Origin: Okamejei kenojei
Taxonomy: Eukaryota
Assembly (NCBI GenBank): GCA_035221665.1
Contig: CM069147.1
Location: 19,964,001-20,028,000 of the forward strand
Length of the DNA stretch: 64,000 nucleotides
Reading direction: 5' to 3'
Shown here: piece after piece, positions 665-26,752 of the stretch
How positions within the stretch are numbered: position 1 is the first letter of the stretch
Layout of the letters: every line of letters starts with the position of its first letter
Made by a program: the position numbers and the translations under genes
Notes under the pieces: generated by a model
What the model saw: the letters and a program-made list of their open reading frames with translations, nothing else
What the model was told of the DNA's origin: nothing
The model's database searches: none

Positions 665-1376
665 TCATTCTGAGGAAAGACATTCTAGCCATAGAGGGGG
701 TACAGAGAGGGTTCACCAGACTGATTCCTGGGATGTCAGGATTTCCGTATGAGGAAAGACTGGATAGACTTGGCTTGTACTCGCTAGAATTTAGAAGATA
801 GAAACATAGAAAATAGGTGCAGGAGGAGGCCATTTGGCCCTTCGTGCCAGCACAGCCATTCAATATGATCATGGCTGATCGTCTACTATCAATAACCCGT
901 GCCTGCCTTTTCCCCATATCCCTTGACTCCACTAGCCCAGAGAGCTCTATCCAACTCTCTCTAAAATCCATCTTAAAGATTGAGGGGAGATCTTATAGAA
1001 ACTTACAAAATTCTTAAGGGGTTGGACAGGCTAGATGCAGGAAGATTGTTCCTGATGTTGGGGAGGTCCAGAACAAGGGGTCACAGTTTAAGGATAAGGG
1101 GGATTTCCTTTAGGACCGAGATGAGGAAAACATTTTTCACACAGAGAGTGGCGAGTCTCTGGAATTCTCTGCCACAGAAGGTAGTTGAGGCCAGTTCATT
1201 GGCTATATTTAAGAGGGCGTTAGATGTGGCCCTTGTGGCTAAAGGGATCAGGGGGTATGGAGAGAAGGCAGGTGCAGGATACTGAGTTGAATGATCAGCC
1301 ATGATCATATTGAATGGCGGTGCAGACTCAAAGGGCCGAATGGCCTACTCCTGCACCTATTTTCTATGTTTCTATG
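665..1376 (+). mobile_element. CR1 LINE 3' fragment, with an antisense CR1 3' end nested at ~798-970
   Basis: ORF pieces KDILAIEGVQRGFTRLIPG..ERLDRLGLYSLEFRR and RGDLIETYKILKG..FFTQRV..LWNSLP are the CR1 ORF2 C-terminus; (TTTCTATG)n tail at ~1360-1376. Confidence 0.9.
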
Positions 1377-1559
1377 TAATTTGGATGTTATATTTTATAA
1401 GTTATTCACATTTTTAACTTTACAAAATCCCACTTTGAGAAAAATGTATTTGATCTGCACTGGCAGTTACAGCTATGACGTCACAATGGGATTGTAGCCC
1501 TGCATGCTACAATGTTGCAATCCCAGGACACTGAGTCCTTGCAGCCCTAGCAAGTGCAA

Positions 1560-1961
1560 TCTAAAATTGTTTAAAAAGTTTAAAATGAGGGAGGGTGAAT
1601 AAGGGGAAATGAGCCACGCATGCAGTGGAGGGGCTATGGGTGAGTGGTGGAATATTGTGTTGGGGGAACGGGTTGCGTTGGGGGAACGGATGAGTGGTGG
1701 AATATTGCATTGGGAAATGGGTTGCGTTGGGGGACTAGGCCTCCTGTGGAGGCTATGGGCGAGTGGTCGAATATTGCGTTAGGGGAACGGGTTGCATTGG
1801 GGAACGGGTGACAGGTGGAATATTGCGCTGGGGAGCGGGTTGCATTGGGGAATCAAGCCTCCCATGGGGGCCATGGGTGAGTGGTGGAATATTGCGTTGG
1901 AGAAAAGGGTTGAGTTGGGGGACCGCGTGACAGGGATCCAACGTGTCCCACTTGGTTTAGT
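1560..1961 (+). mobile_element. Helitron-like non-autonomous element, 3' part
   Basis: Tandem GGTGAGTGGTGGAATATTGCGTTGGGGGAACG units; degenerate terminal hairpin (1933-1949) followed by TTAG-T, homologous to the intact end at 27711-27740. Confidence 0.5.
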
Positions 1962-2912
1962 TTATTAATAATAATAATTTGGGTGTAGAGTGCATAATGT
2001 CCACATTTGCAAATGTCACAAAGCTTAAGGCTAGTGAAAGGAAAGAGGAAGATATAAACAGGATGGCAGAGTTGGCAGAGAGGACCGATGAAATCTAACA
2101 AGATATGGGATGTGTTCCATTTTATTCAGAATAACAAGAGGAAGCAATGTAAATAGAAGGCACAATTAAAAAATGGGTACAAAAGATGTCTACAAGTATG
2201 TTTATTCTTTACATTGAAATTAGCAGACAGTTCACCTACATTTTGATTTCTCGTAAAGATGGAAAGTCCATAGGCAAGGAACTGAAATTCACAAAATACT
2301 CATTTGGGCACATCTTAAGCATGATATCCAGTTCTGTGTGCCACATTTTAGGAAATGTGTAAAGGCTTTAGAGATTGTGGTGGACAAATTTACTAAAACT
2401 CCAGGGATGACGAACTGTGGATTAAAGCTGGAGTTCTTCTACTTGAAGGAGAGGAAATTGTGAAGAGGTCTGAGAATGGTATTTCAAATCATGAAGGTTA
2501 CAACAAAAGCCGACGGAGAGAAAATGTTACCATTGGCAGAAAAGTCAAGAAATGGAATGGAGACGAAAAAACCGATGATGCTGGAATATTTATCAAAACC
2601 TCAGTCAAAAGGAGGCGCCCAACTCAAAATGCTGCCTGTTTATTCCCTCCCCAGACACTGCCTGATTGGCTGATTTCCTTCAGCACTTTGATTACAATGG
2701 AGATAACTTACAAAACAATAAAAAATGACAAAGCTAAACATATTTACAAAGCAGATGGTTATGGTCTGAAATGAATCGTCCATCGTAGAAATAGCTGCTG
2801 ATTTAACTATAGCATTCAAAGGGGAGTTTTAAAAAGTATCTCAAAGGAAAATTCTGCAGGATGTGATGACTGGATTGCTCTTAAATCCATTCCTCGCATC
2901 CTGCAGTTTTCA

Positions 2913-4625
2913 ATAGACAATAGACAATAGGTGCAGGAGTAGGCCATTTGGCCCTTCGAGCCAGCACCACCATTCAATCTGATCATGGCTGATCATCCAT
3001 AATCAGTACCCCGCTCCTGCCTTCTCCCCATATCCCCTGACTCCGCTATTTTTAAGAGCCCTATCTAGCTCTCTCTTGAAAGTATCCAGAGAACCTGCCT
3101 CCACCGCCCTCTGAGGCAGAGAATTCCACAGACTCACCACTCTCTGTGAGAAAAAGTATTTCCTCGTCTCCGTTCTAAATGGCTTACTCCTTATTCTTAA
3201 ACTGTGTCCCCTGGTTCTGGACTCCCCCAACATCGGGAACATGTTTCCTGCCTCTAGTGTGTCCAAGCCCTTAACAATCTTATGTTTCAATGAGATTTCC
3301 TCTCATCCTCTGAACTCCAGAGCGCACAAGCACAGCTGCTCCATTCTCTCAGCATATGACAGTCCAGCCATCCTGTGAATTAACCTTGTGAACATACACT
3401 GCACTCCCTCAATAGCAAGAATGTCCTTCCTCAAATTAGGGGACCAAAACTGCACACAATACTCCAGGTGTGGTCTCACTAGGGCTCTGTATAACTGCAG
3501 AAGGACCTGTTTGCTCCTATATTCGATTCCTCTTGTTATAAAGGCCAACATGCCATTCAATTTCTTCACTGGCCTGCTGTACCTGCATGCTTTCTTTCAT
3601 AGACTGATGTACAAAGACCCCCAGATCTTGTTGTACGTCCCCATTTCCCAACTTGACGCCATTGAGATAGTAATCTGCCTTCCTGTTTTTGCTACCAAAG
3701 TGGATAACCTCACGTTTATCCGCATTAAACTTAATCTGCCATGCATCTGCCCACTCACGCAACCTGTCCAAGTCACCCTGCATTCTCATTGCAAACTCCT
3801 CACAGTTCACACTGCCACCCAGCTTTGTGTCATCAGCAAATTTGCTAATGTTATTTTGAATCCCTTCATCCAAATCATTGATGTATATTGTGATATACCC
3901 AGCACCAAGCCTTGCAGTACCCCACTAGTCACTGCCTGCAATTCTGAAAGGGACCCGTTAATCCCTACTCTTTGTTTCCAGTCTGCCGACCACTTCTCTA
4001 TCCATGTCAGCACTCTACCCCCAATACCATGTGCCCTAATTTTGCCCAATAATCCCCTATGTGGGACCTTATCAAATGCTTTCTGAAAGTCCAGGTACAC
4101 TACATCCACTGGCTCTCCCTTGTCCATTTTCCTAGTTACATCTTCAAAAAATTCCAGAAGATTAGTCAAGCATGATTTCCCCTTCATAAATCCATGCCGA
4201 CTCGGACCGATCCTGTTACTGCAATTTCTTCTTTTATAATTGTGGCTATCTCATCTTTTATAATTGACTCCAGCATCTTCCCCCACCACCGATGTCAGGC
4301 TAACTGGTCTATAATTCCCCCTTTTCTCTCTCCCGCCTTTCTTAAAAAGTGGGATAACATTAGCTACCCTCCAATCCGCAGGAACTGATCCCGAGTCTAT
4401 AGAGCATTGGAAAATTCTCACCAATGCATCCACGATTTCTTGAGCCACATCCTTAAGTACCCTGGGATGCAGAGCATCAGACCCTGGGGATTTATCAGCC
4501 TTCAGTCCCATCAGTCTATCCAACACCATTTCCTGCCTAATGTGGATTTCCTTCAGTTCCTCTGTCACCCCAGATCCTTTGGCCACTACTATATCAGGAA
4601 GATTGTTTGTGTCCTCCTTAGTGAA
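2913..4625 (-). mobile_element. CR1 LINE, 5'-truncated, frameshifted RT
   Basis: YLDFQKAFDKVPH, KFADDTKLGG, RPHLEYCVQFWSP motifs across ORFs 3003-4586; (TCTATTG)n tail. Confidence 0.93.
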
Positions 4626-20227: not shown

Positions 20228-20453
20228 GAAAATGAGAAGAAGATTTTTACCAAAGATGTTTGATTTTTACGGGGATGTTTCCGTAACCGGCTTCTGTCTC
20301 CGCACTAGTATCTTTGCTCCGCTATGGCGGACAAAGATGGTGGAGAAGGAAGCTGGTTACGGAAATAGGGCCAAAATTTACCCATGAATCTGCCCGTGAC
20401 CGTACTATGTATTTTTCGTCGAGTGGACTATCTTGCTCGCTATAGGATCTTTG
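20228..20453. mobile_element. P-type MITE fragment with CAAAGAT.. termini
   Basis: Terminus ...GCTATAGGATCTTTG (20453); second terminus-like CTAGTATCTTTG (20316); internal 17-bp inverted repeat 20278-20294/20349-20365. Confidence 0.55.
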
Positions 20454-21660: not shown

Positions 21661-23974
21661 GGGAAAAAAAGTGTGGTGGGATCTTGTACTGTTTATTATG
21701 ACTGTATACATTTTATTGGAAACTACATTTTAGATTCAAGACAACAAAACCCTGAATCGCACAGCAAATTTTGCATGTGGTAACTCTCTACTTGATCTAC
21801 TGAAGCAAATGCTCTGGAAGTGCTTTTCCTTTGCTCTCATCTTTCATCTCAAATTAGAGGGGATCACAAGGGAAAGGTGAGAGAATATGGGCGAGTGACG
21901 AGTCCTTGCTCTCGTTCCCCTCCGCCCCCAACAGAACGAATTCCAGGTCCGCCACAACGTAGAGCTTTTCTTCCGTCGCCTCTGCCTCTGTGCCTTTTTT
22001 CATGGGAAGGAGTCCTCGCCACCCAGTGATGACCCCGTCTCCACCGGTTCCCCTCCTCTTGGACTTCCCAGAACAGCCTTCTACTCTCTCTAGACCTCTT
22101 TATTGCTAATTGCCAGCATGGCGTCAACTGTCTCAACTTTTCCATTCCCCTTATCTACTCCAACCTCACCCCTTCTGAAAGTAGAGTCCTCCTCTCACTC
22201 TGCAGCAACCTTGACATAATCAAACCCGCCGACAAGGGGGGTGCCATGGTGGTCTGGTGCGCTGACTGCTATCTGGCTGAGGCCACGTGACAACTCTCAT
22301 TCACCTCCTACTTATCCCTGGACCATGATCCCACAGATGAGCATCAGGCCTTATCTCAAGCACTATTGCTGATTTCATCACTTCTGGCTGTCTACCTTCC
22401 ACAGCCTCCTAACCTTATCATTTCCCACCTCCGCACAGCCCGTCTTTAGCTTCTCCCACAAACACAACTGCCCTGGCAGACCCATTGTTTCTGCCTGCCT
22501 CAGTCCCACGGAAATGATTTCCACATACCTTGACTCCATCCTATCCCCCCTGGCCCAATCTCTCCCGACCTATGTCCAAGATATCTCACATGCCCTTTGT
22601 CTCTGTAAAGACTTCCGCTTTCCGAGCCCCCACTCCCTCATCTTTACTATGGACGTTCAGTCACTCTGCACCTCCATCCCCCACCACGAAGACCTTAAAG
22701 CCCTCCGTTTCTTCCTCGACCGCAGAACCATCCGATTTCCATCTGCATACACTCTACCGCACCTAGGTCCTCACCCTCAGCAACTTCTCCTTTGACTCAT
22801 CCCACTTCCTCCAAGTCCAAGGTGTAGTTATCGGCACCCGCATGCCCCCCAGCTATGCCTGACTCTTTGTAGGATACGTTGAACTATCTCTGTTAAAGGC
22901 GTACACTGGCCCTCTCCCTGAACTCTATCTCCGTTACATTGATGACTGCATCGGTGCTACCTCCTGCACTCGTGCAGAACTCATGGACTTCTCCAATTTC
23001 ACCACTAATTTTCACCCTGCACTCATATTTACTTGGACCATCTCTGACACTTCCCACCCCATTCTTGATCTCACAGTCTCCATCACAAGAAATAGACTAT
23101 TGAATGACATTTTTTACAAACCACTGACTCCCACAACCATCTCAACTACATTTCTTCCCACATTGCTTACTGAAAAGACTCAATCCCCTACTCCGTCTAT
23201 GCCGCATCTGCACCCAAGATGAGGTGTTCCGTACTAGAACATCCGAGATGTCCTAATTCTTTAGGGAATGGGGGTTCCCCTCCCATCATAGATGATGCCC
23301 TCACTCATGTCTCCTCAATACCCTGCAGCTCTGCCCTTGCTCCCCCTCCCCCAAGTCGCAACAAAGGGTTCCCCCTAGTCCTTACCTTCCACCCTATCAG
23401 CCGTTGCATACAACACATAATCCAAAATTTCCACCACCTCCAATGGGATCCCACCACTAGCCACATTTTCCCAATTCCACCCCTTTATGCTTTCCGCAGA
23501 GACCACAACCCTGATTAACTCATCCCAAACCACCCCCTCCCCAGGTTCCTTCCCCTGCAACCACAGAAGTTGCAACACCTGTCCCTAAACCTCCTCCCTC
23601 AACTCTGTCCATTGACCCCGACGGTCCTTTGAGGTTAGGCAGAGGCAGGGCCGGATTTACATATAAGCTAGACAAGCTTAAGCATAGGGCCTCGAGATCT
23701 AGGGGGGCCTCTGCTCGCTCCACCAAGGTGTATAAAACATTTGAGATAGTGGCGTTGTTACAAGACCTACCATCAGTGGCGCTGTGCGATAATGGCATTG
23801 TTGCAAAACCTACCATCGGTGGCGCTGTGCTTGCGATTCCAGAGGCTTTGGTGGTGTGGGGGGGGAGGGCTTAAAATGCAGGTGAGGTATATATTCGTTG
23901 AGGTGAGGAATTTGCTCCACAGATCCTTGGATCATTGGGAGTGCAGGACAATGCAAATGGTAATGCGTGGTATC

Positions 23975-24865
23975 TGGGACCGACCCACCTCGCCGCCGCA
24001 CCAGGCCGACCCACCTCGCCGCCGCACCGGGCCGATCCACCTTGCGACCGCACCGGGCCGATCCACCTTGCTGCCGCACCGGGCCGACCCACCTTGCTGC
24101 CGCACTGGGGGCCTACCCAATTCGCTGCCACACCGGACCTATCAAACTTCGCCGCCCCACCGACCATCTGCCCACAGGGACCTTCAACGCTTTGCCCTCC
24201 GACCCTCGGCACTCCACCGCCCTCCAGCAGCCCGCAGCCGTCGCCTTACCTGCAGCCTGGACTCAGCAACGGGCCTGATGTTTCCACCAAAGATACTAGA
24301 AGAGCTCCTCTAGTATCTTTGGTTTCCACGCTGCAGATTCTCACTCCACTGGGTTAGACTGCGCTGGGTCCTAATGCTAGTCACCCCAACTCTGGTAACC
24401 TCAGTGGCTGTTCCACTGGGTCTTCCCCATTCCCCTCAAACCATGTGACCCCTGCTCTTCCCCACCCACACTACAGTCCTCATACCCCCGCTACCCCCCT
24501 GACCACCCTCCCACCAGACAACACCTCGGCCTCAGTCCACTCACCTGCCTTCCTCCGGCCACAATCCTCATCCGTGCCGTGTGTTCACCATCCCCCCCGA
24601 CCTCCCCCTCTCAGATACCGAATGGTTTGTCCGCAGCAGAGGCCTCACCTTTGTCCCCCTCCATACCCACCTCAATGAGTTCTGCACCCTCCGCGATTTG
24701 GAACTCTTCTTCCGTCGCCTCAGCCTCACACCGTTCTTCCATGGGAAGGAGTCCTCGCTCCCATTGATGATCCCTTTTCCCGTCTCCAATGGACCCCCTT
24801 CTCTTGGACCCCCCCCCCCGGACCATTTTATTTTAAACTGCCGGCGGGACATTAACCGCCTCAAC
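23975..24865 (+). mobile_element. Penelope 5' fragment nested in the hAT element
   Basis: FTIPPDLPLSDTE..SRGLTFVPL..LNEF..DLELFFRRL; homologous to 25730-26660 (-); 5' tandem CCGCACCGGGCCGA(T/C)CCACCTTG units. Confidence 0.8.
24288..24321. mobile_element. 34-bp P-element-type remnant (two fused 17-bp termini)
   Basis: CAAAGATACTAGAAGAG + CTCCTCTAGTATCTTTG (16/17 inverted); 8-bp TSD GTTTCCAC (24280-24287, 24322-24329); empty site visible in the paralogue at ~26340-26360. Confidence 0.8.
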
Positions 24866-25716
24866 AGCATATAATACCATGTAATTCTGTGTTCAGGGAA
24901 GTGGAGAGAGGACAGCCAAGTGTCTGTGTTGCTCACTTGGCTGGGTTTGTTTTCCTTGCCACTTCCATCGGCCAATAATTAGTAAAGTATTGAATTGGTC
25001 TACCAAACTGCTTTGTAAGTTGTCTGTTTATTAAGAAGTGAACCTGTTTGTTTAGTTATGTTAGCCTTTTTCAAGCAGATTTGATTCAGGTTTTGCAATA
25101 TAATTGTCAATAAGGAACAATTCTTTAAGAAATATTTCCCAACTATGGGACTTCCGAATCGGCCACGTCCTACCGGAGACCGCGGCTCCCGAAGTCCACA
25201 GGCTGAACTCGGCAGAGATTCACGCTGGCGGCCCTTGGCAAAGGGATCCCAGGGCTCCACAATGTTGAAATCAGCGCGGCCTAAGGCTGGGAGCTCCGCA
25301 AACCACAGCTCCATGATGTTGAAGCAGCAGGCACAACACTCCAGAGCTTCAAACGGCGATCCAGGTAAGGCATCGTCCGCTCCGTGATGAATCCAATATG
25401 TATTTTAAAACCAACTGTGTAATGACAACATACAGTAGGATCTAAAAGTGTCACTGTCACTGTCAGGTAGTCAGGGTCCTCCAGTCGTGGGGGTGGGGAA
25501 TTGGGAGGGGGGGGATTACAAGTGAAATAGCTTACGGCCTCCCTTCATCTAAATCCGGCCCAAGGCAGAGGTTCACTTGCACCTCCCCCAACCTCATTTA
25601 CTGTATCCATTGTTCAAGATGTGTACTCGTACATCGGTGAGATCAATAGCAAACTGGGCGAATGTTTCGCGGAACACCTTCGCTCAGCCCATGTAAACCA
25701 ACCTGATCTCCCGGTT

Positions 25717-26752
25717 ACACAAAAAGCTGGAGAGTGAGTCGATGGCAGTACGTTCAGGGCTGGAGAGATTGGAGTGAGACAGGGGGGTGGAGAAGTCGAG
25801 GCGGTTGATGTCCCGACGGCAGTTCTGGATAAATAGTTCTACAGCCGGAAGGCTACGAGGGGGGGTCCAAGTGGAGGCGGTACGTGGGAGACAGGAAAAC
25901 GGATCATCAGTGGGGGGGCGAGGGCTTCTTCCCGTGGAAGAACGCTGTGAGGCGGAGGCGACAGTAGAAGAGCTCCAAGTCGTGGTGGGCGCGGAACTCA
26001 TTGAGGTGGGGACGGAGGGGGACAAAGGTGAGACCTCTGCTGAGGACAGACCGTTCGATGTCGGAGAGGGGGAGGTCCGAGGGGATGGTGAACACGCGGC
26101 AAGGATGGGGGTTGTGGCCGGAGGAAGGCAGGTGAGTGGACTGAGGACGAAGCGTTGTGTGGTGGGGGGGTGGAGGGTGGGGGGGTATGGGGGCTGTGGT
26201 GTGGGTGGGGAAGAGCAGGGGTTACATGGTAGGGGGGGGATGGGGAAGACCTAGTGGAATAGCCACTAAGGTTACTGGGGCTGGGGAGACGGGCACTAGG
26301 ACCCAGTGCCATTAAGGACAGAGTGGTGGGAGGAGTTAGCAACGTGGAGGCTTCAGGCCCACTGCAGAGTCCAGTCTGCAGGTGAGGCGACGGCTGCGGG
26401 CTGCTGGAGGGCGGTGGAGTGTCGTGGGTCGGCGGACCCGAAGGTAGGAGTCCGCGGGCAGTAGAGTCGGGGTCGGCGGGCGATGCGTTGGAGGTCCCGG
26501 TGGGCGGGTGGTCGGTCCGACCGGTGAGGCGGCGAGATGAGTGGGGTGCGGTGCGGCGGCCGTGTTCGGGGAGCCCCGGTCCGGCGGCGATGCAAGGTGA
26601 GGCGGGTGCGGCTGTGGTCTTCGGCGGGCCCAGTACACCGGCGATGCTGGATGGGCCCGGTGCAGCGATGGCTCCCTACGGAGACAGTTTCACAACCTCC
26701 TCTCTAACCTCCCTACGGAGACAGTTTCACAACCTCCTCTCTAACTTTAAAA
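25717..26752 (-). mobile_element. Internally deleted Penelope insertion
   Basis: 14-bp TSD CTGATCTCCCGGTT (25703-25716, 26753-26766); FTIPSDLPLSDIERSVLSRGLTFVPLRPHLNEF. Confidence 0.8.

Follow-up and report, generated by a model that had tools for sequence, protein, structure and literature searches.

The closest described system is the P element of Drosophila melanogaster, whose transposase, according to the structural account in PMC7776569, makes a 17-nt staggered cut. There, a loop forms in the transferred strand, in which bases -14 to -18 are disordered, and this strand re-anneals with the 5' portion of its nontransferred partner, a pairing that is needed for transposition. Fly P elements insert at the target motif ATRGTCCGGACWAT (PMC2577343, in the part considered).

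Repair of the cut fly donor is documented in Table 1 of PMC2895639 by 68 junctions from Rad51-less flies with 17-nt tails. No arm in this table is over 17 nt, and an A is sometimes added, also after a complete tail. Flush 17|17 joins are absent (0/68), and the part of Table 3 examined holds a single one; joins at AT number 14 and joins at TA 5, and the commonest short-microhomology join trims 1 nt off each 17-nt tail (14/68). On this pattern, 17+17 junctions are not what the fly would be expected to produce, and a join can fall 1 nt short of the end of a tail.

A 34-bp remnant in a retroelement of Okamejei kenojei

We analyzed a stretch of 64,000 nucleotides of the Okamejei kenojei genome (C17:19964001-20028000; the window) and ran searches across the 2.76-Gb genome. 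The features of the locus, in window coordinates, are as follows.

23900..24870 (limits approximate), plus strand: host, the 5' part of a decayed Penelope-like retroelement open reading frame (ORF) carrying the scar
24280..24287, plus strand: left copy of the target-site duplication, 8 bp; a single 8-mer in 45 empty host copies
24288..24305, plus strand: left transposon end, bases 1 to 18 of the terminal inverted repeat and putative 3' donor tail; the ends of L057, L058, and the C17 element match
24304..24321, minus strand: right transposon end, bases 1 to 18 of the terminal inverted repeat, by sequence match to parent ends; the GC at 24304-24305 is common to the left arm
24322..24329, plus strand: right copy of the target-site duplication, 8 bp, identical to the left copy
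26344..26351, minus strand: unoccupied equivalent site in a more distant host paralogue

A sequence-only reading of the window had noted an 8-bp duplication around 34 bp of inverted 17-mers, and this description was confirmed: GTTTCCAC at 24280-24287 is followed by 34 bp at 24288-24321 and by GTTTCCAC again at 24322-24329. The 34 bp form a palindrome with a single mismatch, an A at 24301 where the family has G, which is a later change in the left arm. Cutting the palindrome at its center gives halves of 17+17. Since base 18 of the parent end is C, the same letters can equally be read as 18+18 with the GC at 24304-24305 belonging to both arms, and the 17+17 split is therefore not unique. The overlap of the two arms at this GC would represent a 2-nt microhomology. 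The 34-mer is one of hundreds of leftovers of a P-type transposon, and these leftovers are likely excision scars.

The same reading had pointed to a paralogue at about 26340-26360 as the empty site. The insertion is indeed missing from this paralogue, which shows only ~80% similarity and has two mismatches in its 8-mer; a genuine empty site, a single GTTTC(C/T)AC in the same flanks, occurs at 45 other places in the genome.

Parent elements of the P superfamily

Judged by its sequence relatives, the parent of the scar is a transposon of the P superfamily and of the mobile P lineage. The ends fall into subfamilies that differ by a 0- to 2-base indel before a common GAGC, so that GAGC ends at base 18, 19, or 20, and AAGAT follows it directly in 46 of the 48 long ends examined. 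Long ends opening with the same 25 bases number 150 in the genome. Facing pairs of focal-type ends with perfect 8-bp duplications delimit L057 (6,249 bp) and L058 (2,741 bp), each with terminal inverted repeats identical at 31/31 positions, and a third facing pair, on C17, spans 27 kb and also has a perfect 8-bp duplication.

L057 contains a THAP exon (PF05485, E 1.1e-5, above the cut-off) that is 81% identical over 450 bp to the THAP exon of a 10,235-bp element on C28. The latter is flanked by a perfect 8-bp duplication and holds one of the 20 genome matches to the P GTP-binding domain. Its 446-aa frame matches PF21787 (E 7.9e-34), PF21788 (E 2.6e-17), and PF21789 (E 1e-6), and its sole match in the PDB is the fly P transposase 6p5a (E 3.5e-27). 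Read by eye from the alignment with fly P, the catalytic residues D230, D303, and E531 are matched in C28, and the eight GTP-contact residues given in the part of PMC7776569 considered are kept; P transposases require GTP for cutting and joining. An origin from hAT, Merlin, or another non-P transposon, which the earlier reading had named as the alternative, was rejected, the frame between the sister ends matching P families only in both Pfam and the PDB.

The autonomous element sought by that reading was recovered in part: the C28 sister element carries the P transposase domains, but its gene is broken by a frameshift and its ends differ from those of the scar at bases 8 to 10 (3 of the first 18). 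In the three elements examined whose ends match the focal scar exactly, the interior yielded no catalytic domain, so the link to the transposase runs through a close sister subfamily. Scars with the C28 subfamily's own ends are also present in the genome. Around the transposase genes at C1, C3, C20, and C22, no matching end pair was seen in the ~30 to 50 kb read for each. Together, these data show that insertion of elements with focal-type ends duplicates 8 bp of target and that these elements are part of a lineage coding for a P transposase. The assignment of the ends to a P-type transposon accordingly stands, with THAP, RNase H-like, and GTP-binding insertion domains and 8-bp duplications with a GT....AC core.

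The label THAP9-like is loose, the transposase being one of a mobile P lineage. A protein search over 2,845 candidates retained 135 relatives at E ≤1e-20, of which the best is unnamed and 73% identical; among the 120 homologues listed, none is named THAP9 and most are nameless. A domesticated THAP9, which PMC7776569 in the part considered describes as a single gene lacking both inverted repeats and deleted copies, was rejected as the source, given the 20 domain matches, terminal inverted repeats, and deleted copies found here.

Several other arrangements of the family were observed. In the window, 20317-20453 on the minus strand is an end of the same P family that belongs to the 19-nt variant and has a short inverted repeat inside it; its partner end was not seen within 1.4 kb. 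Nested P elements lie at C28:7021085-7040666 (L104-L106), where a long-end element encloses the short-end one with the broken transposase; both complete elements have perfect duplications, and the short-end element holds a further long-type end at 7033772. A long-type end is likewise found inside the short-end elements L031, L033, L034, L038, L041, L048, and L052, ~0.8 to 1.3 kb from the short end. The inner long-type ends of this set and of C28:7033772 have a constant outer flank and face the outer end of the short-end element around them, so these elements carry a spare inner end. L057 is interrupted at about 900-4500 by a decayed Gypsy-like long terminal repeat retrotransposon (DUF7041, reverse transcriptase, and RNase H) inserted in the P derivative. 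On C22, a P transposase cluster at 44.7 to 44.9 Mb and 50.0 to 50.2 Mb (L078, L082, L084, L085, L088, L089, and L092) accounts for 9 of the 20 genome matches.

Genome-wide census of scars and target-site duplications

Both 12-nt arms within 30 bases were found at 401 genome sites, against 0 for the reversed control, and both 15-nt arms at 83; the pattern is thus not due to chance. Raw counts mislead, as single scars have been multiplied by other repeats: 12 of the first 15 loci of the 12-nt pattern have one flank in common, and one 32-bp scar, in a carrier repeat of ~2 kb, is present in 243 copies. The raw 32-bp length peak was rejected as evidence for these reasons.

Flanks were fetched and clustered to de-replicate the scars. 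The first 50 of the 83 15-nt-arm places and the window gave 34 flank clusters, and the first 50 places of a second pattern list (243 strand matches) gave 40. Added to these were 46 places with A after GAGC (50/71 of that list being used in all), 40 places hand-picked from 100 rows of a GAGC-selected list, and 13 from the 12-nt-pattern list. The pooled sample comprises 198 sites in 142 flank clusters. With loci of the 12-nt list left out, the 8-bp duplication is perfect in 80/140 clusters and has at most 2 mismatches in 128/140, and the 12 clusters with more than 2 mismatches were excluded from the arm counts. Duplication lengths of 6, 7, 9, and 10 bp fit 1, 1, 0, and 0 clusters, respectively. 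The target core is GT....AC (G 59% and T 76%, both strands pooled), with weak preference outside the 8 bp. Scars are present at well over 100 independent sites.

Some scars depart from this picture. L149, L153, L133, and L227 are four different scars at one target inside an abundant repeat, likely a hot spot of insertion or a case of repeated excision from copies of one insertion. L119, L182, L186, L195, L217, and L219 are scars without a duplication in one carrier, and L195 and L217 have flanks that are mutual reverse complements, as though two left ends had been joined. The 243-copy scar (L314-L343, around position 1517) has a folded-back junction.

Retained arms and the length of the donor tails

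We then looked at how much of each end is kept. Arm counts come from the two samples unselected for the base after GAGC, in which the search patterns set a floor, not a ceiling, on arm length, and each flank cluster had one vote. The longest arm is 18 nt at 27/33 short-end sites and 20 nt at 21/35 long-end sites; arms of at least 20 nt occur at 1/33 short-end versus 22/35 long-end sites (p 7e-8). Among long-end products, 33 bp (15/35) and 38 bp (8/35) are the main lengths. A 33-mer would derive from two 20-nt tails, each tip having paired with the inner GC of the other. For 37-bp scars, we dropped a supposed 15-nt end variant, as 20+19-2 with CpG decay accounts for them.

The sequence-only reading had explained the window 34-mer by a stagger of 17 nt as in the fly, with the two tails joined flush. 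The number fits, 34 being 2 × 17, and 26 of the 33 independent short-end sites are 34 bp long, the main short-end product. Such tails are nevertheless very improbable: more than 17 nt is kept at 28/35 long-end sites, which largely refutes them for the long end; 36-bp 18|18 joins recur at unrelated sites; and the fly junctions described above, as far as Table 1 and the examined part of Table 3 in PMC2895639 go, make a flush 17|17 join a rarity in the fly itself. The retained arms stop at base 18 in the focal subfamily but at base 20 in its sister, which speaks against the claim of the same stagger. The ceiling of 34 bp expected by that reading does not hold either, since scars of 36, 38, and 40 bp occur, within an overall range of 26 to 56 bp.

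Flush joins at unrelated sites with duplications and unique flanks, picked from the list selected for GAGC, are of type 18|18 in L231, L234, L240, and L255, 18|20 in L230, and 20|20 in L226 and L238; L246, also with unique flanks, consists of 18 nt, 10 inserted bases, and 18 nt. Across 909 strand matches in the genome (not de-replicated), GAGC is followed by T in 670, by C or G in 168, and by A, the element's own next base, in 71. Of the 71 matches with A, 7 go on with AAG, all for at least 5 bases, and these are the only arm matches of the 909 to reach at least 3 bases past GAGC; none ends at +3 or +4.

The recurrence of an extra A after GAGC, as in the 19|18 joins L200 and L278, in GAGC-A-ATCTTTG, and in about ten 18+10 joins that could use an A, means that the tails could be 1 to 2 nt longer. 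One may then imagine that every subfamily has the same fixed tail of ~20 to 22 nt and that this tail is cut back as far as the last GC prior to joining, which would leave the A or AA seen in the 71 matches and for which fly joins, often trimmed by 1 nt to reach a microhomology, offer a precedent in the junctions tabulated in PMC2895639. We consider this improbable, though less so than 17-nt tails. Joins without microhomology also stop at GAGC; at the A-after-GAGC sites examined, arms ending at +1 or +2 are not in excess at the short end (12 versus 16 at the long end); the complete list of 71 A-after-GAGC matches contains no short-end 19|19 or 20|20 flush join; the lack of arms ending at +3 or +4 also counts against it; and Table 1 of PMC2895639 shows that the fly adds A after a complete tail, too.

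Another possibility is that the 34-mers are minimal elements that move as such, or the end points of internal deletion during gap repair. The same 34 letters do occur at many sites with fresh duplications, the 7 remnants that keep at least 5 bases beyond GAGC are what aborted gap repair would give, and no site was found in both full and scar form (0 matches between 64 long ends and 198 scar sites; 0/30 copies with a long element in the second carrier, that of the 243-copy scar). Contigs of four runs were compared with L058: those of three runs enter the element from its unique flank, and contig joins across L058 have 20 to 26 letters on one side and may derive from scars elsewhere. Against small mobile units stand the diversity of the junctions, which run through microhomologies, flush joins, and inserted bases yet have one sharp edge in common, and the 138 and 216 bp of end that fly elements require according to the part of PMC1562414 considered. 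This explanation, too, we hold to be highly doubtful.

The view that the remnants are excision footprints is supported by their sharp length edge. As in fly footprints, both copies of the duplication surround short end remnants with a sharp upper edge and varied joins. We assign a probability of roughly three in four to the reading that the window 34-mer is the excision footprint of a P-superfamily transposon whose tails, probably of 18 rather than 17 nt, were rejoined at a common GC. The scar lengths suggest that the enzyme leaves tails of 18 to 20 bases and not the 17 of the fly. Read from these old repair products, the inner cut would lie at GAGC^AAGAT, giving 18 to 20 nt depending on the subfamily.

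Spread of the scar with its host

The window copy is a passenger in a Penelope-like retroelement and not a local excision at this locus. Its flanks are common to 10/50 other 15-nt-arm sites, and the complete list of host copies spanning the site comprises 65. Of these, 45 are empty and have one 8-mer each, 20 are filled, and none, whether filled or empty, contains a long element. In a tree of 31 host copies, the filled state is clustered (4 changes versus a shuffled mean of 10.5, with 0/500 shuffles as low); a single origin was not recovered in this tree, which is compatible with one. The scar would have arisen once or a few times and then been copied with its host.

Penelope-like elements combine a reverse transcriptase with a GIY-YIG nuclease. 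We take the host to be Penelope-like on its motifs, among them a GIY-YIG-like motif that was spotted by eye across a frameshift. A sister host copy, L302, has an RVT_1 match below the cut-off (E 8e-5), and a Pfam search with five host fragments from the window gave zero matches.

Scar and duplication add 42 bases, which make 14 stop-free codons in the host frame and are stop-free in that frame only. Three empty copies, two with the RGLTF motif and one with a variant of this motif, are likewise stop-free in this frame between the site and the conserved region of the host ORF, and so are filled copies, L295 and L305 among them. Frame neutrality is not general, a multiple of 3 being added by 9/15 multicopy scars and 53/113 single ones. 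We infer that the P insertion broke a host copy, that excision left a frame-neutral scar, and that the host then spread this scar. The filled host copies L289, L290, and L310 run downstream into a common unrelated repeat with a transposase-like frame, so the spread may partly be that of a cargo of a second element.

A model for excision and repair

By analogy with the fly enzyme, the transposase would cut one strand at the element tip and the other inside the end, leaving a 3' element tail on each flank. The inner cut is proposed to fall at GAGC^AAGAT in all subfamilies, so that tails of 18, 19, or 20 nt would result from the 0- to 2-base indel nearer the tip. Because the freed AAGAT repeats element bases 3 to 7, it would find a perfect partner in the transferred-strand tip for re-pairing of the kind described for the fly transpososome, and the indel, from its position in the sequence, would fall in the looped-out part of that strand. 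Host end joining may then pair the GC tips to yield 34, 36, or 38 bp or pair a tip with an inner GC to yield 33 bp, the alternatives being a flush join or inserted bases. The window scar would have been copied along with its Penelope-like host, whose frame the 42 added bases leave open.

Taken as a whole, we lean slightly toward the following view. The P stagger would not be fixed at 17 nt but would be dictated by an internal repeat of the tip sequence (GAGC^AAGAT versus bases 3 to 7), with the looped-out strand absorbing indels, so that one vertebrate lineage could cut 18-, 19-, and 20-nt tails; hundreds of germ line scars would record both these cuts and the choices of host end joining, and one frame-neutral scar would have let a P-hit retroelement spread again.

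Comparison with known P systems

Our searches of open-access literature yielded no account of P elements, or of footprints like these, in cartilaginous fish; the P family itself may be catalogued in Repbase or Dfam. The scars offer evidence from nature that a long stagger functioned in a vertebrate germ line as well, its length following the end sequence, and a large natural sample of how this germ line joins long noncomplementary 3' tails. For one enzyme acting on ends that differ by 2 bases, the cut is predicted at the same motif. The scars also carry a practical warning, raw scar counts being inflated by repeats up to 243 copies of one site.

Among vertebrates, the P-like element Pdre2/zfTHAP9 of zebrafish, as presented in the part of PMC10983969 considered, likewise makes 8-bp duplications and has copies with internal deletions. 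It differs in having 13-bp ends of another sequence, and its excision in cell assays gives larger flanking deletions, for which that part of the report states no tail length. Anopheles P elements and P-MITEs resemble the family described here in their 27- to 31-bp ends, 8-bp duplications, and several subfamilies, and some elements have ends from two subfamilies, as here (PMC1562414, in part). In contrast, the MITEs keep up to ~100 bp of each end, and the word footprint is absent from that paper.

Drosophila melanogaster P shares with the present elements the 8-bp duplication and 31-bp inverted repeats (PMC7776569 and PMC2895639, in part) and a THAP domain together with an RNase H-like domain bearing a GTP-binding insertion (PMC7776569). 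The core of the fly target, with G and T at the start and A and C at the end of ATRGTCCGGACWAT, resembles the core found here (PMC2577343), and fly donor repair also proceeds by joins at 2-nt microhomologies, flush, or with inserted bases, in the tables of PMC2895639 considered. Here, unlike in the fly, arm length varies with the subfamily (18, 19, or 20 nt rather than 17), joins are made at GC, the evidence is of a fossil kind and comes from a vertebrate germ line, and target preference beyond the 8-bp core is weak. The kind of element is thus a known one, a P-superfamily transposon with fly-like donor-repair scars; its scars exceed the 17-nt limit of the fly.
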